Positions 13,895-24,440 of a stretch of 24,822 bases of DNA are shown one piece after another. The notes beneath the pieces were generated by a model. It searched no databases. It saw nothing but the letters and a program-made list of their open reading frames with translations, and had not been told where the DNA came from. The stretch's first letter is position 1, and the number at the start of each line of letters is the position of its first letter. This DNA comes from a virus (taxonomy: Duplodnaviria; Caudoviricetes): the IMG/VR virus record IMGVR_UViG_3300012041_000061, positions 1-24,822 of that record; one strand, written 5' to 3'. The position numbers and the translations under genes were made by a program.

Positions 13895-14140
13895 CTACTG
13901 AATCAGTTGCCGGCGAATGATCTGCACGTACGCGCGGAGATTGGTCTCGATGTGGGCATAGTCGCGCGCGAGGTCAGCCGGGGACTGCTGCAGGCTGTTG
14001 ACGGCGAGAATCCACGCGATCTGATACGTGAGCGCCTCGATGATCACCTTGCCATCGGTCTTCGGGGGCAAGGTCACCTCGAGCCAGGTCTGTAACTGTT
14101 CTTGCAGATCGAGCGCGTGCGTCATAGGGTCCCGCGCCAT
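13895..14140 (-). CDS. 81-aa hypothetical protein coupled to integrase
   Basis: MARDPMTHALDLQEQLQTW...; ATG overlaps the integrase TGA (TGATG). Confidence 0.65.
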   Translation of the reverse strand: MARDPMTHALDLQEQLQTWLEVTLPPKTDGKVIIEALTYQIAWILAVNSLQQSPADLARDYAHIETNLRAYVQIIRRQLIQ

Positions 14141-15360
14141 CACGCACCGCCTTTCGCACGCTTCACGAGGCGCGGGCCGAACACGCCCTTGAGGCGGCCG
14201 TCGATCGCGTCGCTGACGGACCGCTGGCGCGCGATCGCGAGCGGCCCGTAGAACGCGCGCGTCGTCTCGGCTTTCGTGTGGCCCATGAGGCCCTGCACGT
14301 CGTCGAGCTGCACGTCGTGGGATTGCAGGGCATCCTGCGCGATCGAATGCCGCGCGTTGTACGGCCGAATCGCCGCGGGCCAGCCGCACACGCGCAAGCG
14401 CTTCGCGTGGAGTGACGTGTCGTACACGCCCCAGGCGTGCGCCTTGATGAACGCGCGCCACGCTTTCACCATGTCGGTGTTGAGCGTGACGGTATGCGCC
14501 GGCGCGCCCTTCGCGCTGCGCACAATCCAGAGCCGGGCCTCGAGCTTCACATCCGACGGCTGCGCGCGCATGAGCTGCGTCGGCCGCTGCCCGGTCGTGT
14601 TCAACACGAGATAGCGGCCGTAGGTGTCCGGCCAGTCGGTTTTCGCGAGCGCCTTCGCGACGAGCCGGATCGTCTCGACCTCGACGCCGACCGGCAGGCC
14701 GGGCTCGATCGCCGGAATCTTCGCGGCGTCGACCGCGGTCGTCGGCAGCCCTTCCGCGAGCAGAAACTCCCGCAGCAGGCGGCAGCGATGCCGCACCGTG
14801 CGGACGGCGACGACGAGCGGCCCGCTCGTGGTCGGGGTCGTGCGCGCGTAGCCGTCGATCGCCTTTCCGTGCCGGGCATAGGCCGTGACGGTGATGCGGC
14901 GGACCGCACGGGGCTGCCCCGGCGTGCCGGCGGGAGGCGGCGTGCGCCACGCGCTGATCACCACGTTGACGTCGGCCGTCGTAATCGCGGCCGGGGCCTT
15001 CGCCCCGATCGCCTGCCCGTCGGCGCCCGTCGCCCGCAGCCACGCGCGCAGGTGCGAGCGGTCGGCCTTGAAGGACACACGGCCCGTGATCTGCGGCCAG
15101 AACGTCTCGAGACGGGCCCCGAGCGTGGGGCCCACCTTGGCCCCTGGGCGCGGCGCGGCCGGCTCAAGGGGCGCGAGGCTCAATTCTTTCTTTTTGTCGA
15201 GCTGCCACTGCTGCATGACGTAGAGCGGCGTGTCGAGGCCACAGAGGGCCGCCGGCATCGAGTAGAGCGTGCCGTGGTGCTTGACGCGGACATCGTGGCC
15301 GGAGGCGTGCCGGTAGATTTGGGTCGCGATCTGGGTCTTGAGCTGCGGGCGTTTGGGCAT
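14140..15360 (-). CDS. int: Tyrosine integrase
   Basis: Catalytic set TGQR...K...YNARHS...MGH...FY; AGGAG SD before ATG 15360 (the track extends to 15465); next to att. Confidence 0.92.
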   Translation of the reverse strand: MPKRPQLKTQIATQIYRHASGHDVRVKHHGTLYSMPAALCGLDTPLYVMQQWQLDKKKELSLAPLEPAAPRPGAKVGPTLGARLETFWPQITGRVSFKADRSHLRAWLRATGADGQAIGAKAPAAITTADVNVVISAWRTPPPAGTPGQPRAVRRITVTAYARHGKAIDGYARTTPTTSGPLVVAVRTVRHRCRLLREFLLAEGLPTTAVDAAKIPAIEPGLPVGVEVETIRLVAKALAKTDWPDTYGRYLVLNTTGQRPTQLMRAQPSDVKLEARLWIVRSAKGAPAHTVTLNTDMVKAWRAFIKAHAWGVYDTSLHAKRLRVCGWPAAIRPYNARHSIAQDALQSHDVQLDDVQGLMGHTKAETTRAFYGPLAIARQRSVSDAIDGRLKGVFGPRLVKRAKGGA

Positions 15361-15484
15361 GGTTGGCGGCTCCTGTTCCGCCAGGGTGGAGCACCGGCCG
15401 AGCTCGTTGGGTATGTCACCCAAAGGTCGACTGGTTGCACTGATTGCACAAGTTGCACGGAGCATAACCCAACGAGCTCCAGAT

Positions 15485-15797
15485 GTCCACCACCCGGCCC
15501 TCCACCCGGGAGTCCGGACCCCACCGAAATCCTTAGGAAATCAGCGGACGGGGGCGGACGTGGGTGGACGCGCGGGAACTCCCACCCGCGCGGCCGATTT
15601 CGGGCTGTTTTCGCGTTTTCGTTAGGGTTTCTGGGGGTTTTAGGTGGTTGCGGGGGGGGGATTTGAACCCCCGACCTTTGGGTTATGAGCCCACAGGTGC
15701 GCTTGTAAGTGACTGATTAGACTCGGTCGTCCGCTGTCTACCACCCACGTCTACCACCCGCCGCCCGGTTTCGGCCCTGTTCACCCCTGTCCGCTCC
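15485..15797. repeat. Integrase arm-type repeats and IHF site around the att core
   Basis: GTCYACCACCC at 15485, 15736, 15749; three GYGGACG-ending units at 10-bp period 15542-15570; TGTTCACCCC/TGTCCGCTCC 15778-15797; IHF consensus AATCAG-N4-TTA on minus 15706-15718. Confidence 0.65.
15645..15693 (-). mobile_element. attP core: 3' half of initiator tRNA-Met(CAT)
   Basis: TGGG-CTCATAA-CCCAA-AGGTC-GGGGG-TTCAAAT-CCCCC-CCCCGCA-A-CCA. Three G-C pairs in the anticodon stem mark an initiator tRNA; no D arm or 5' acceptor strand upstream. Confidence 0.9.
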
Positions 15798-15942
15798 CGA
15801 CCGCTTTAGCGCAGGCCCAAAGGTCGTGACGCGCGGTGAATCCCGACAATGTGAGGGGGGGCAAATTGTCCGGATTACGATGTCTTGCGATCGCAATCAT
15901 CGCAATCCCCTACCGCTGGCGAATCCGTGCTATCCTCGCGCT

Positions 15943-16122
15943 ATGCCCAAACGCCGACACAGAAAGAACCCCGCCGCCGTCGAGCTCGGCCGCCGCGGCG
16001 GGCTCGCCCGCGGCAAGACCGTGCTCAAGAGTATCCCGGCCGAGACGCGCCAGGCGCTCGCCAGCCATGCCTCTCGCGCCCGCTGGGCGCAGGTGCGCGC
16101 GAAGAAGGAGGCGGCGTCATGA
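15943..16122 (+). CDS. 59-aa basic protein (KNPAAVxLGRxGG family), probably nucleic-acid binding
   Basis: 'KNPAAVELGRRGGLARG...ASRARW'; extended -10 TGCTATCCT ends 6 nt before the ATG (leaderless). Confidence 0.75.
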   Translation: MPKRRHRKNPAAVELGRRGGLARGKTVLKSIPAETRQALASHASRARWAQVRAKKEAAS

Positions 16123-16334
16123 GCCTCCGACTCGGCGCGCTCCACGACGCGCTGCTCGACCCCGGCAATGCTGAGAAGGCCGTACGGGCGGCCGAAGAGG
16201 TCGCCGGCTACGACAAGGCCCTTATGGACATCCGCGGCGACCTGCGGGTGATTCACTGGATGCTGGGGGTCATGCTCATCATGATCGTCGGGCTGTTCTG
16301 GCAGGGCTTCACGATCATGGGACGGTTGCCATGA
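16119..16334 (+). CDS. Small coiled-coil protein with C-terminal TM helix
   Basis: ATGA overlap; 'LHDAL...EKA..AAEEVA...IRGDLRVIHWMLGVML'. Confidence 0.75.
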   Translation: MSLRLGALHDALLDPGNAEKAVRAAEEVAGYDKALMDIRGDLRVIHWMLGVMLIMIVGLFWQGFTIMGRLP

Positions 16335-16522
16335 TGGTGCGCGAACTCTACGACGCGCTCATCTCCGTCGGCTGCGACAACGCGCTCGCGCGCGCGGCGG
16401 CCGAGGCTGTGGCACCAGCGGAGTATGTACACGAACTCGAGGCCGAGGTCGACGAGCTCTACAGGCGCGTCATAGAGCTCGAGGCGGCACGGCAGCCGGT
16501 GGACGCGCGATCACGAAAATAA
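16331..16522 (+). CDS. Soluble paralog of the preceding protein
   Basis: 'ELYDALISVG...ARAAAEAVA' plus coiled coil; ATGA overlap. Confidence 0.7.
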   Translation: MMVRELYDALISVGCDNALARAAAEAVAPAEYVHELEAEVDELYRRVIELEAARQPVDARSRK

Positions 16523-19523: not shown

Positions 19524-19766
19524 ATGACCTACCGCCGCCTGCTTATCGATGGCCCCGCCGCGATCGTCGACGCCACCACCGCCGCCGGCGCGTGGCTCGA
19601 CGAGCAGATCGCCTTTGGCGTCACCCTTCTCTGGTACGCCTACTGGATCACCGTCGCGACCGTGATGGTTCTCTGTCTCCTTACCGTCGCCGCGTGGCTC
19701 GCGCTCGGGAGTCCCACACCCCTACCCGATGCGCCGGCCGTCCTACCCCGCGGGCCGCGCGCTTAG
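19524..19766 (+). CDS. Small membrane protein, antisense to the late operon
   Basis: Exactly fills the gap between two minus-strand genes; long hydrophobic segment; TACACT -10 upstream. Confidence 0.65.
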   Translation: MTYRRLLIDGPAAIVDATTAAGAWLDEQIAFGVTLLWYAYWITVATVMVLCLLTVAAWLALGSPTPLPDAPAVLPRGPRA

Positions 19767-21994
19767 GGCGTCGCGGGCTCAGGTTCCTCGGTCACCGCCG
19801 GCACCAGCGCCGGCCGGGCCTCCGTGATCGCCCGCTCGAGCGAGGCCGCCCACGCCGCGCGCGCCGCTTTTGCGCCCACCGGCAGCCGCAGGCCATTGAG
19901 GAGGAGGCGCGTCGTCCGCGGCGACAGCAGCAGCTTCGCGACCACTGGCGCCGCCAGCGTGTAGTTCAGCCCCACCCCACTCATCAGCGCCGTGCCTTCC
20001 GCGCCCTTAAACGCCGTCAGCGCCGTGCCGCTCGGGTTGGGATTCTCGGCGAGCTTTTTCGCCAGGAGGAAAAAGTGATCGAGGTCCTTAATGTGTGCCG
20101 CATCACGGAACAGCAGGAGCTTGGTCTGCGACCCGAGCGCCTGCCATTTTGCCTGTAAGCCCTGCGCCCGACTAAACCCGCCCTCGGCGGTCGCCGTCTG
20201 CAGCAGGTCCTCGAGAAACGCCCGACCCACGAGTGGCAGACTCTCCGGCGCCTGTCGTTGGAGGTCCCGCAGGAACCCCGCCGCCGCGTCCTTCTGCGAG
20301 GTCGCCTTCCGAAAGACCCCGACCCCTTCCGGATGGAGGTCCTCCAGAATCGCGCCCGCGACGTATTTCGCCCGCGTCGCCGCGCGCCCGGTCTCGAGCG
20401 CCCGTAAGACCTCCGGCCCCGCCGCCGTGGCCGCGTTGCGCACCTGCCTGTCCAAGTGCTTGACCGCCAACGCCGCCGCCCCTTGTCCCGCCGTCCGGAG
20501 CTCCGGGATGTCCGTGCGGGCCATCGACTTCAGATCCCCGAGCGCCGCATCCACGATCGACAGCGGGGCATGATCGCCAGCGGTCATCAAGGTATCAAGC
20601 GCGACGAGCGCACGCGCCTTCGTCCCCTGCAGCACATTGGTGAGCTTCCGTTCCCGGGTGAGCCGATCGTAAAGCGGCTGCAGCGCCGCCTTCGCTGGCC
20701 GGAGGTCGACGGGCAGCTTCATCACGACATCGACCTGCCCAGCCCCGGGCGGGAGAATCGGGCTCGAGATGTCCTGATACTTCCAGCCCCCCTCGGCGAG
20801 GCGCTTTTTCGCGACCGCGAGCGCCCCGCGGGCCGCGTTGGTCAGACGCCCAGTTCGGAGCGCGAGCGCGATCGAGCGCTGCACCTCGGCGCGCGTCATG
20901 TTGGAGGTGCCCGGCGCCGCCTGGAGGATGTCGTCATAGACCGGCGCCCCGGCGGCGCGATGCACGTAGTGTGTGTCCACGTCACTATCGCGGACCAACT
21001 TGCCGGGCTGGAACGGCACCGCGTCGAGCTCTTCGTAGATGCGCCGCAGTTCCTGGATCTCCGCCGGGGCCGGGAGCTCCCCGCCCAGTTCTTTCCGCAG
21101 CCGTTCCTTCACGGGCGTCGGCAGATCCTCGGGCACATAGTCCGCATGGAGCAGGTTCTCTTCCGCCGTCCGGAGTTGCCCGTAGGCGACATCGGCCTCC
21201 TTCGCATGCTGTTGCACCGTTCCGCGCACGCCCTTCCGCACCGCCTCGCCCGCGAGCTCCGGTGTCGTGGCGGCGCCCGGCGCCGTGCGTTCCGCGAGTT
21301 GTGCGCCTGTGGCCTTCAGCGCCGTCGCTTGCGCATCGCGCGCCCGCCGGCCGATGGGACTCCCAAGGAGCGACTCTTCGGCGAGCCGCTGCGAGCCCCG
21401 CAGGAAGGTGTTGCCGGTCGCCGTCGCGACATCCACCGGCACCCCCTGCCGCATCCCCCACGCGACCGCCTCGCCCAAAGGGTCGACGGCCGCGCGCGCG
21501 AGCTTCGGCACGATCGGGACCGTCGCGCCCGCGGGGTAGGCTTTCGTGATGACGCTCGGCAGCGCGATCTGCCCGAGGAGACCCGTCGCCTCGCCCAGCG
21601 CCCCCGCGACATCGTCGCCGGCGCGGATGCGCTCGCCGAGCGCCGTGGTCGCCGGCCCCAGCGCGGGCAAGAGTCCCGCGACGGTATACGCCGCGGCTTT
21701 CTCGTAGTCCCCCTGCCGATAGAACTCCCGCGCCTTGTCGAACTGCTCCCCGGCCGCGGTCGCGAGCGTCTCCAGCGTGCGCCCGACCGCCTCGGGACTC
21801 TTCACCGCCTCATAGAGCCCCGTGAGAATCGCCACCGGGTTGGAACTCTTCCAGAGGCCCGCGCCGTACCGCGCCGGCGCACTGCCCTCCTCCGCCGGGG
21901 CGGTGCCCGCATGCGGATCGGTCGAGAGATAGCCCGACGGGGCCACTGGGCGCCCCGCGTTGGGGTCGGTCGAGAGGTATTCATCGGGCGGCAT
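19763..21994 (-). CDS. Ejection/DNA transfer protein (gp16-like position)
   Basis: 743 aa, Ala-rich and helical; duplicated 'YLSTDPxAG' at the N-terminus; third of the ejection genes. Confidence 0.65.
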   Translation of the reverse strand: MPPDEYLSTDPNAGRPVAPSGYLSTDPHAGTAPAEEGSAPARYGAGLWKSSNPVAILTGLYEAVKSPEAVGRTLETLATAAGEQFDKAREFYRQGDYEKAAAYTVAGLLPALGPATTALGERIRAGDDVAGALGEATGLLGQIALPSVITKAYPAGATVPIVPKLARAAVDPLGEAVAWGMRQGVPVDVATATGNTFLRGSQRLAEESLLGSPIGRRARDAQATALKATGAQLAERTAPGAATTPELAGEAVRKGVRGTVQQHAKEADVAYGQLRTAEENLLHADYVPEDLPTPVKERLRKELGGELPAPAEIQELRRIYEELDAVPFQPGKLVRDSDVDTHYVHRAAGAPVYDDILQAAPGTSNMTRAEVQRSIALALRTGRLTNAARGALAVAKKRLAEGGWKYQDISSPILPPGAGQVDVVMKLPVDLRPAKAALQPLYDRLTRERKLTNVLQGTKARALVALDTLMTAGDHAPLSIVDAALGDLKSMARTDIPELRTAGQGAAALAVKHLDRQVRNAATAAGPEVLRALETGRAATRAKYVAGAILEDLHPEGVGVFRKATSQKDAAAGFLRDLQRQAPESLPLVGRAFLEDLLQTATAEGGFSRAQGLQAKWQALGSQTKLLLFRDAAHIKDLDHFFLLAKKLAENPNPSGTALTAFKGAEGTALMSGVGLNYTLAAPVVAKLLLSPRTTRLLLNGLRLPVGAKAARAAWAASLERAITEARPALVPAVTEEPEPATP

Positions 21995-23357
21995 TCGTCA
22001 CCGCCTTCCAGCCCTTCCCGTCCCATTCCGCGAGCTGGCCGTTCACGGTGCGTCGCTCGCCAACCTTGGGCCCCGGGACCCCAGCGGCCGACGGTGCGGG
22101 CGTCCCGCGCGGGGTGTACTCCCCGCCGGCCACGCGCAATGTGTTCTCGCGCTTCGCCGTGATGAAATCCGAGAGCGAGCTCAGTTTGGCTTTAATCTGC
22201 AGCACGCTGTCGGTCGTCGTCGGCGTGTAGCGGTCGAGCATGATCTGCTCGCTCGGCGTAAAACTCGCGCCCCCGCGCAATTTGGCGATCGTGCCCTGGA
22301 TGTTCCCGAGGAGGTTCCGGAGACGTTCCGGCTCTTCGCCTCCCACGCCGAGCCACTTGGCCCCCGCCGCGCCTGTGCGGCCGGCAATCGGCCCGACGCC
22401 CCGCCATTTAATCCGCTCCCCGAGGTTCAGCGCTTCCTTCCCCAGGTCCTGCACCGTCAGCATGGTCGCAACATCTTCCTGCTGCCCCGCTGTCAGCTTG
22501 AGGCCGCCTTCTGCCCCGCCCGCGGCGCTCCCGGGCGTCATCCCTAGCGCCTGGCTTTCTCGCACGTAGATCGGTTTCCCATCGGGCCCAATCACCGAGA
22601 CGATCCGCTCGTCGCGAGGCGCGGACGGTGTTCCCGGCACGGCCGCGATCTGCTCACCCCCCGGCCCGAACCGCACCGAGCCCGGCGAAAGCGTGAACTG
22701 CTCCGTGGGCGACTCGCGCGGCGGGCCCGCCGCAATCTGCTCCCCACCGGGCCCATAGCGCACCTGCCCCGGCCCGAGCGTGAACCCCGCCTCCGCCGCC
22801 GTCCCCACGCGCGCCAGCGCGCCCGCCGCGAACTGCTGGAGCGCCACCGACCCGTCGCGGTCGATCGCGTCGAGGAGCTGATCGGCCAGGGCGGCGGGGA
22901 GCGCGCCGATCTGCTTCGCGGCGCCAATCTCCAGCCGGCCGAGGTCGGGGTCAAACTGTTGCGCCGTCAGGCTCCGCGCCGTCCCCGCGAGATACTCCGC
23001 CCGCTTCTCGGCGGCGGTGAGGTTGGCCGTCTGGGTGCGCGCCATGCGCTCGGCGTTTTCGTCGAAGACTTTTTTGACCTCGAAGAGCACGGCGGGCGGG
23101 AGCTGCCGCCCGAGCGCCTTCTCATAGTCGAACGTCGGCTGCTTGGTCACCGGGTCCAGGCTGATCCCTGCGGCGAGCGCCTGCTCGATCTGCGCGTCGC
23201 GGGCGCGCTTGGCCTGCGCGTCGGCCGCGGCCGCCGTGCGCTCCTGGGCCTGCGCGCGCTGCCCCTGCAGCTGGAGCACCTGCGCGTAGGTCTCGAGCAC
23301 CGACGGCCCCGGCGCGGGCGGCCGAATCGACAAGGGGATGGACGGATCAATCGGCAT
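21981..23357 (-). CDS. Ejection/DNA transfer protein (gp20-like position)
   Basis: 'MPIDPSIPL' start; two 'FTLxPGxVRxGPGGEQIA' repeats. Confidence 0.7.
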   Translation of the reverse strand: MPIDPSIPLSIRPPAPGPSVLETYAQVLQLQGQRAQAQERTAAAADAQAKRARDAQIEQALAAGISLDPVTKQPTFDYEKALGRQLPPAVLFEVKKVFDENAERMARTQTANLTAAEKRAEYLAGTARSLTAQQFDPDLGRLEIGAAKQIGALPAALADQLLDAIDRDGSVALQQFAAGALARVGTAAEAGFTLGPGQVRYGPGGEQIAAGPPRESPTEQFTLSPGSVRFGPGGEQIAAVPGTPSAPRDERIVSVIGPDGKPIYVRESQALGMTPGSAAGGAEGGLKLTAGQQEDVATMLTVQDLGKEALNLGERIKWRGVGPIAGRTGAAGAKWLGVGGEEPERLRNLLGNIQGTIAKLRGGASFTPSEQIMLDRYTPTTTDSVLQIKAKLSSLSDFITAKRENTLRVAGGEYTPRGTPAPSAAGVPGPKVGERRTVNGQLAEWDGKGWKAVTNAAR

Positions 23358-23366
23358 GGGTCACCT

Positions 23367-24440
23367 CTAGTACGGCCGCATCGGATACGTGGGAACCGCG
23401 CCACCGCCTGTCGCGGCCGGCGAGGCTGTGCCGCCGCGCGTCAGGATCGCCAAGAGCGCCGCCTGTGTCGCGGCGTCCGCGCCCCCCAGCAGGCTCTGCG
23501 CCCGCGCATTCGCCGCGCCCACCGTCCCCGCCGCCTGCGCGTTCGCGTTCTGCGTGATGAGGCCGGTGCCCGTGTTCGCCTGGTTCGTGAGCAGGTTCCC
23601 CGCGTTCCCCGCGTAACTCGACCCGAGGTTCGCCTGTTGGCCGGCGGCGCCGTAGCCGAGCTGGCTCAGGCCCATGAGCTGGTTGTAGCGATTGTTGTAC
23701 TCATTCGACGCGAAGTCCTGCCCGTAGCGCGTGATCGCCTTGAGCGTCCCACCGGTGAGGAGCGTCCCGCGCGCCGCGGCCGAGCGCTCGAGCGCCTTCT
23801 GCCCTTCGCTAATGCGGAACTGGAAGCCGGGCGCCGTCATGAGCGCGGCCGTCGCGCCCCCGACGCCACTGAGCGGCGTCATCCCGCCGCCGCCGCCAAA
23901 CTGCCCGCTACCGCTCGGCCCCGGCTGAAAGGTCGAGACGGGCAGGCCGAGTGACTGCTGGTAGTCCGCGAGGACGACCTGCTGGCCGTCCGGCCCGATG
24001 ACGCGCCGCGTCGGGTTATAACTGCCCGACGGCCCGCTAATCGAGTTCCACTTCGGCTTGGGCCCGTCCCAGCCGCGGATGAGGTCGACGTAGGTCCCAT
24101 CGGGCATCACGATCGCGTCGTTACTCGCGATGGGGTTCCGACGCGAGCCGTGCGTCGCGCGTGTGGCATTGATCCCCTGCGCGCGGAGCGCGGCGAGGAT
24201 CGGGTCGATCAGCGCGGGGCTCGCGGGCTGCCCGGCGATCGTCTGCCGGATGATCGCGTAGGGGTCGACGCGCCCGGGCGCGGCACCCGTGGGGGCTGAC
24301 GGGGTCGGCGCACCCGTGACGGGGTCGAACGTGCCCGGCGCGCCGCCGGTCTGCGGGACGGCGGGCGCCGGGGCCTGGGGCGCACCTTGCGTGTCGAACC
24401 AGTCGGTCGCGCCGGGTTCGGCGTAGTCTTGCTGAGCCAT
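23367..24440 (-). CDS. Ejection/pilot protein (gp7-like)
   Basis: 'PGFQFRISEGQKALERSAAARGTLLTGGTLKAITRYGQDFASNEY' signature. Confidence 0.78.
   Translation of the reverse strand: MAQQDYAEPGATDWFDTQGAPQAPAPAVPQTGGAPGTFDPVTGAPTPSAPTGAAPGRVDPYAIIRQTIAGQPASPALIDPILAALRAQGINATRATHGSRRNPIASNDAIVMPDGTYVDLIRGWDGPKPKWNSISGPSGSYNPTRRVIGPDGQQVVLADYQQSLGLPVSTFQPGPSGSGQFGGGGGMTPLSGVGGATAALMTAPGFQFRISEGQKALERSAAARGTLLTGGTLKAITRYGQDFASNEYNNRYNQLMGLSQLGYGAAGQQANLGSSYAGNAGNLLTNQANTGTGLITQNANAQAAGTVGAANARAQSLLGGADAATQAALLAILTRGGTASPAATGGGAVPTYPMRPY

Follow-up and report, generated by a model that had tools for sequence, protein, structure and literature searches.

Why would a temperate phage hold, within an arm of its own attachment site (att), an inverted and loop-replaced copy of the host tRNA gene into which it would integrate? 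The question is raised by a viral contig of 24,822 nucleotides (nt; 24.8 kb) from IMG/VR (Caudoviricetes, record IMGVR_UViG_3300012041_000061; this whole stretch is called the window below), a temperate phage contig with portal and coat genes of P22-like type, genes for the terminase subunits and a gene (int) for a tyrosine integrase (Int). Temperate phages and islands very commonly integrate into tRNA genes and, to our knowledge, the handling of transcription from the host tRNA promoter by integrated elements has been little studied. Four features are needed from the outset, attP and attB being the phage and bacterial attachment sites:

15380..15429, plus strand (tRNA-sense): inverted copy of tRNA-fMet nt 1-49, with the D-loop and the anticodon loop replaced
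14140..15360, minus strand: int, encoding a lambda-type tyrosine integrase of 406 amino acids (PF00589)
15645..15693, minus strand: attP core: 3′ part of tRNA-fMet, running from its anticodon stem through CCA
15689-15683, minus strand: predicted 7-nt overlap, CTCATAA

The answer put forward here, tentatively and at a little under an even chance, is that the inverted copy may be a cis-acting RNA switch, which would sense integration by pairing with the part of the tRNA supplied by the host. The element is complementary to tRNA nt 1-31, the part missing from the free phage, and is antisense to the tRNA both in the int mRNA and in RNA reading through from the tRNA gene.

The preliminary description of this DNA had reported three tRNA-like blocks, GGGTGGAGCA (15384-15393), AGCTCGTTGGG (15401-15411) and CCCAAAGGTCG (15419-15429), starting 23 nt from the int ATG (15360, minus strand) and forming with a second, inverted copy a 13-bp perfect inverted repeat (15400-15412 / 15467-15479). 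All of these positions check, and the perfect repeat lies within a 29-nt inverted repeat. The alignment to a host-type tRNA-fMet that it had proposed was run against the intact gene adjoining a related int in locus L061: 15380-15428 matches this reference at 34 of 49 positions, ungapped, compared with best matches of 25-30 per shuffle in 200 dinucleotide shuffles of the whole window. The claim that both 7-nt spacings are kept is true of the window, but the spacer at the anticodon position measures 5 nt in L047-L049 and 6 nt in other lineages. Complementarity to the tRNA covers nt 1-55 at most and leaves out the anticodon loop. The 7-bp overlap identical to attP, which a functional attB needs, is replaced by 5-7 unrelated nt in all nine aligned copies. 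Such a replacement is expected under every reading considered below: were the overlap intact, the copy would be a live inverted attB near attP, through which Int should invert the segment. The stretch is identical in assembled contigs of run X1, possibly the source sample, and of run X4 (15250-15487), and the element is therefore no assembly artefact. A Rfam scan of the window at E ≤ 1 placed nothing on the element, its sole match being a partial tmRNA T-arm, and ARAGORN detected no tRNA gene in the window.

Relatives were surveyed at 124 loci from two scans, 74 of which have an fMet core and at least 330 nt of P′ arm (60 distinct); carrier labels were assigned by us, with L059 as a split, partial case. 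A loop-replaced inverted copy is present at 14 of the 74 fMet loci and in 10 of the 60 distinct attP regions, in about four lineages, and the carrier phages come from soil and sediment. Non-core matches to the tRNA above 33 bits are all antisense to it and lie at +234 to +313 in the P′ arm, in both int arrangements: int starts at the copy in the window lineage and is downstream and convergent in L002/L056/L117, L004/L005, L017/L088 and L059, with the copy at or beyond the int 3′ end. The element follows att geometry and not the int leader, because it is antisense at these positions whether int starts or ends there. The preliminary description had named poor conservation as the sign of a one-off recombination scar; in fact L045-L050 all conserve the blocks, which are found again in three other lineages.

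In a quick tree of 98 integrases, whose rows are not independent, the carrier label falls on 9 rows and requires six changes, at least four of them forced by strongly supported branches. The carriers all lie inside a 40-row clade marked by a beta-hairpin insertion in Int, in which 9 of 27 fMet rows carry the element, compared with 0 of 27 outside. The copy of L004 has 27 and 14 nt of perfect tRNA identity, D-loop included, flanking the replaced loop. In L017 (3880-4000), a set of arm-type repeats flanks the copy on either side, and a strong hairpin comes after it, ahead of the int stop.

Among the matches listed, pattern scans of IMG/VR found a loop-replaced copy with an opposite-strand core only in this integrase family. 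One scan gave five matches, three with an opposite-strand att core (all of the window Int family) and two without; another gave at least 120 loci, read as phage tRNA-Met genes, none of those listed having an opposite core; a third gave six, four already known and two with neither att core nor int; and a fourth gave none. Two further viral scans added no new carrier. Two genome searches (401 genomes each) found relatives in three and five genomes; L262, a relative whose tRNA-fMet is complete, shows no copy in the P′ stretch viewed, and among them no prophage was seen to combine host tRNA and element. An inverted copy of the locus's own 11-nt anticodon-stem segment is present at 0 of 12 non-fMet loci, most of which are outside the carrier clade, a result to be read beside the fact that only about one-sixth of fMet loci carry a copy. 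Other family members point to Arg-CCG, Thr, Pro or tmRNA-like targets, and four loci (L033, L116, L127 and L260) have a different att core, whose 3′ end resembles what we take to be tRNA-Sec. Several D-loop variants of the host tRNA-fMet occur among the sampled genomes.

By sequence comparison, the element appears to be selectively maintained, being better conserved than the flanking arms. L002 and L004 share 41 of 43 element positions, against 95 of 141 in the P′ arm, and L047, L048 and L050 share 38-40 of 46 element positions with the window, against about 67% in the arms. The copies match the tRNA at -9 to -28 from the overlap; in L002 and L004 the D-loop is kept in full, and in L017 it is kept except for its first base. 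This identity exceeds what attP needs, because constraint in 57 distinct attP left flanks is confined to about -8 to -1 from the overlap, in agreement with the 7-bp core sites given for lambda and mv4 (bioRxiv 10.1101/2023.11.06.565760). Because the arm repeats of the window lineage begin with GGGTGG, the distal block could be taken for an arm site, but in all six loci it goes on with AGCA as the tRNA does, with C at position 9, and 0 of 31 arm-repeat matches have C at their ninth position; the block follows the tRNA and not the arm repeats.

Under the proposed switch, integration would allow the host tRNA promoter to read through attL, the left end of the prophage, into the P′ arm; the 5′ tRNA part contributed by the host would then pair with the copy and displace a local masking hairpin. 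In the window lineage, pairing would open the int leader and make ribosome loading cheaper, leading to translation of int from host-driven RNA in the prophage. This opening is the likelier output in that lineage; the opposite outcome, in which a double-strand RNase cuts the duplex and silences int, is only somewhat less probable. In modelled attL read-through RNA, tRNA nt 5-31 pair with the element with a probability of 0.81-0.91 in five window-type loci and of 0.81-0.96 in L002, L004 and L017, compared with 0.20 in L051, which has no element. The predicted cost of opening the ribosome site drops by 1.0-3.5 kcal/mol on pairing in five of five carriers and rises in L051. The leader hairpin of the window-type loci has z-scores of -1.6 to -5.0 on the mRNA strand and is stronger there than on the opposite strand in five of five. 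A terminator-like hairpin before a U tract lies at the distal block of L004 (-11.4 on the read-through strand vs -3.0 on the other), and a tRNA-sense copy of the D-arm pairs with the element in L017. Several copies are thus modelled as carrying their own complementary mask. Such models make a switch possible and do not imply that it operates.

A number of results weigh against the switch. Most relatives have no element (18 of the 27 fMet-type integrases of the carrier clade), and the split element of L059 pairs poorly in the model (0.26). Modelled attP RNA of L004 and L017 pairs the same positions at 0.61-0.65, leaving a weak contrast between the two states. The ribosome-site effect is small (1.0-3.5 kcal/mol, as above), and AGGAG, the ribosome-binding motif, is unpaired in all states. 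Furthermore, equilibrium folding ignores the quick folding and processing of the pre-tRNA, and any complementary copy would score likewise. Block changes in L048 (one of two) and in L002 break the pairing with the tRNA, L002 has no stable local mask, and covariation in the leader is not significant (60 of 500 shuffles score as high). Terminator-like hairpins do not separate carriers (1 of 10) from non-carriers (9 of 50), and single matches of this kind are expected by chance (shuffle mean 0.7). Copies in direct repeat would be lost by deletion, which weakens the argument from orientation. The single RNA run has no contig on the element. Read layering over the window showed no joints and left the element without RNA cover; runs with a small share in this layering are no evidence of habitat.

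Regulation of int by other means has to be considered beside the switch, and three features of its leader bear on it:

15461..15489, minus strand: predicted int promoter, TGGACA-17 nt-TATGCT, with a transcription start predicted near 15454
15435..15458, minus strand: GTGCAA repeat occurring three times at 9-nt spacing, across the predicted transcription start
15365..15382, minus strand: GGCGG/CCGCC hairpin, with AGGAG (15374-15370) in the loop and the spacer before the AUG in the stem

The promoter is the only sigma70-type promoter-like site in 15250-16000 (shuffle mean 0.1), and the same layout is found in L046, L047, L048 and L050 with a looser pattern of our own making. Its spacer contains a second B-type half-site (15478-15468), and an arm repeat adjoins its -35 box. 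The second inverted copy described earlier is indeed present, ungapped as GGGTGG-N11-AGCTCGTTGGG, but it is mainly the predicted int promoter. This promoter is likely to be repressed by Int at the DNA level, with the second copy marking the promoter, and this part would be a known kind of regulation, autoregulation of the KplE1 type. The idea that a built-in tRNA mimic masks the leader has to be narrowed: the mimic lies upstream of the predicted start (near 15454), which would place it outside the promoter's own mRNA, and could therefore mask read-through RNA only. The GTGCAA repeats are probable candidate operator sites and can pair with the anti-tRNA strand in the leader fold; similar repeats lie upstream of int in L051, L002 and L004. 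The GGCGG/CCGCC hairpin is invariant in seven of seven close loci, L051 included, and AGGAG is in its loop, not in its stem. A hairpin sequestering the Shine-Dalgarno sequence and opened by the tRNA was rejected in this simple form. A hairpin between the two window copies (z -3.55) was likewise rejected as the main RNA structure, its upstream copy being 5′ of the predicted start and its changes uncompensated. The stretch from core to int in the window yielded no terminator-like site.

The attP core shares the strand and the sense of int and lies 329 nt upstream of its ATG, and an integrated int would therefore sit right behind the host tRNA gene. Contigs bearing tRNA 5′ sequence diverge from the window at 15693. 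The remainder of attP comprises:

15706..15718, minus strand: site presumably of IHF type, a conserved block between the P arm repeats and the core
15737..15759, minus strand: P arm-type repeats, one at -70 and one at -57 from the overlap, with the same offsets in seven of seven close loci
15486..15507, minus strand: putative P′ arm-type repeats (GGGTGG), one at +182 from the overlap and one at +194, the latter adjoining the -35 box
15816..15826, minus strand: additional half-site of core type, 126-127 nt to the left of the overlap, shared by seven of seven close loci

These close loci run from L045 (the window itself) to L051, with Int 73-100% identical, and align as a lambda-type attP, with GGGTGG at -70, -57, +182 and +193/194, the IHF-type site and the core; it is by this layout that the repeats at 15486..15507 are considered putative arm-type sites. 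Arm-type repeats resembling tRNA-fMet nt 5-15 occur at +168 in L002, L006 and L057, in L001, in L008 and at 15486-15507 of the window, with 10 of 11 bases as in the tRNA in the L002 group, and attB itself could possibly hold an arm-type site. Those of other integrase lineages are unlike tRNA-fMet. L008, L065 and L081, of a lineage without the insertion, have inverted core-type half-sites about 10 nt apart at around +175 to +200, just 5′ of the start codon, which are likely Int-binding operators by prediction. In L051 the element, the promoter copy and the P′ arm repeats are all missing, and several GTGTAA-like repeats lie upstream of 2501 in their stead; L060 and L062, of the same clade, have unrelated DNA upstream of int; the int-att arrangement therefore changes quickly.

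The enzyme itself fits a lambda-type heterobivalent tyrosine integrase by its catalytic set, its three domains and the arm/core layout of attP. Its AlphaFold model (mean pLDDT 91) has an N-terminal sheet and helix, a core-binding domain with the beta-hairpin insertion and a catalytic domain, and Foldseek aligns it to lambda Int (1z1b) over 397 columns (E 6.8e-8); an arm-binding role of the N-terminal domain is predicted from the fold. The catalytic residues R259, K284, R337, H361 and Y371 are invariant in 44 of 44 aligned homologues, in all of which the histidine of the HxxR motif is replaced by an invariant Tyr (Y334). The basic insertion occupies Int residues ~155-174 (window 14840-14900, minus strand) of the core-binding domain; it comprises several repeats in homologues P0041 and P0045 and is missing from P0037 and P0039. 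The insertion pattern was flagged in 37 of 40 rows of the carrier clade vs 2 of 58 rows outside, and a search of the ESM Atlas with this region returned just SAM-like integrase domains scoring under 0.9.

With these parts in hand, the alternatives can be compared. It is unlikely, yet deserving of serious attention, that the element works as DNA, as non-recombining core-type sites which bind Int and repress the int promoter or compete with intasome assembly. Both window copies keep a GGGTGG-N11-B half-site in fixed register throughout L045-L050, one half-site falls in the promoter spacer with an arm repeat adjoining the -35 box, and extra core half-sites recur (at -126 in seven of seven close loci; as inverted pairs before the start codon in L008, L065 and L081). 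All carriers belong to the clade with the beta-hairpin insertion, which could extend contacts with DNA, and the L002 change at -5 is tolerated in attP sites. The decoy with Int autoregulation suggested in the preliminary description suits the second copy, which overlaps the promoter, but not the lineages with the copy 3′ of int, near which no promoter was found, nor the identity reaching 9-28 nt from the overlap: attP needs about 8 nt to the left of the overlap, and both the D-loop identity of L002, L004 and L017 and the invariant AGCA exceed this. The spacer length also varies (5-7 nt), and mutation of the core site in KplE1 is described as leaving repression unaltered (PMC2951348). Rather improbable is a sensor acting in trans, in which the short int leader binds free initiator tRNA, or the halves left by anticodon nucleases, and adjusts Int synthesis. 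The predicted transcript starts downstream of the mimic and thus carries the antisense blocks without their strongest mask, cofolding gains are 23-29 kcal/mol with the whole tRNA and 16-26 with its 5′ half, and L047, L048 and L050 match tRNA nt 1-3, overlapping the 5′ arm of the ribosome-site hairpin. However, the loops that would offer a toehold on folded tRNA are the non-complementary parts in the window lineage, the antisense strand differs from the int mRNA in the convergent lineages, and the control for the 5′ half is weak, L051 also gaining 15 kcal/mol. Of the three alternatives first proposed, antisense pairing has the most in its favour, but it is with respect to the att core, rather than to the int 5′ end, that the position and orientation of the copy stay constant.

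Slightly less credible still is a recurrent scar, that is, functionless inverted attB fragments captured beside the P′ repeats and kept once their overlap was destroyed. The patchy distribution (close relatives L003, L006, L055, L057 and L051 have no copy) and the position of the L017 copy between duplicated arm repeats agree with it, but conservation above the flanking arm DNA in two lineages and the element-specific complementary flanks of L004 and L017 do not. A guide RNA helping Int to find attB, as bridge RNAs do for IS110 recombinases, was also among the earlier suggestions and is very improbable. Complementarity to the target and the otherwise unexplained basic insertion in the integrases of the clade speak for it; the 18 of 27 fMet-type members of this clade without a copy share the same att core, the overlap is the very part replaced, fold and att layout are those of an ordinary lambda-type system, and no copy was found for other targets (0 of 12). 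The cis-acting switch is thus retained as the preferred reading. By extension, though with slightly more reserve, the element could represent a new class, a toehold-like switch made from a copy of the target tRNA that is inverted and dead for recombination, with outputs that differ by lineage. Pairing after integration, or with tRNA left unprocessed or cut, might then couple int expression or termination to lysogeny and to the status of the initiator tRNA, a proposal held with the same reserve. It is equally tentative that separate lineages would have been wired to a leader hairpin, a terminator or a masking stem.

The host is probably a member of the Acidobacteriota, because two of three genome matches to the integrase family are labelled acidobacterial metagenome-assembled genomes (MAGs) and, of 151 genomes sampled within the phylum of G003, 76 match a pattern with the exact window blocks; flagged as unpublished among those genomes are G001 (an acidobacterial MAG), and G027 and G052 (of the 76). 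A tblastn search of GenBank phages gave no match, so there is no cultured model, and a single-protein scan of viral contigs found no relative. Elsewhere in the window, three long minus-strand open reading frames (ORFs) at 19763-24440 (743, 458 and 357 amino acids), which have no Pfam match at E 0.01, probably encode virion proteins. Two neighbouring short plus-strand ORFs at 16119-16522 have similar 5′ ends (a 32-nt repeat, 72%), and one of them has a weak match to the DUF7310 coiled coil.

While the integrase and the att site are unremarkable within a known family, the inverted copy is undescribed as far as our searches go: no inverted, loop-replaced copy of a target tRNA in an att arm is described in the literature covered, which leaves out most subscription journals and was available only in part. 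Control of int by an RNA duplex that depends on the state of att is familiar from sib of lambda, which the phage encodes in full and which integration separates from int. The element proposed here would resemble it, on folding models whose contrast between states is weak in L004 and L017, with the difference that the partner strand would be that of the host tRNA and would appear on integration. T-boxes are also leader or terminator switches that respond to a tRNA, and they read the anticodon and the CCA end of folded tRNA. In contrast, the element has no complementarity to either and no T-box match in Rfam, and would pair along the stems. The IS110 bridge or seek RNA systems share with it an element-encoded sequence complementary to the target site, but their recombinase is of the DEDD/RuvC type, whereas the window enzyme is a tyrosine integrase, the crossover bases have been removed and most members have no copy; instead of an RNA in all members that co-varies with the target, a copy is found in 9 of 27 fMet rows of the clade and at 0 of 12 non-fMet loci.

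A close parallel is KplE1, where the promoter of intS (the 'STI' layout) overlaps att arm-type sites and is repressed by Int, and where STI and convergent are given as the two common tRNA-integrase layouts (PMC2951348). Similarly, the window core is on the int strand, so that the tRNA would precede int in the same orientation after integration, a predicted consensus promoter adjoins a putative arm repeat, and both layouts occur in the window Int family. The account of KplE1, as far as accessible, describes no second inverted copy of the tRNA or core and a repression independent of the core site (PMC2951348), whereas the window has an additional tRNA-derived antisense block inside the transcribed leader. 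The att sites of lambda and mv4 have arm-type repeats, a host-factor site and short inverted core sites around a 7-bp overlap (bioRxiv 10.1101/2023.11.06.565760). The window attP shares all of these, but their attB is about 21 bp (same source) while the copies here keep up to 28 nt of the B side. If these copies were Int decoys, they would extend Int autoregulation to a new form, in which the contact with attB is unusually long. If they are switches, the phage would read its own integration state by base pairing with the initiator tRNA of its host, through a logic unlike that of T-boxes or of known integrase autoregulation.
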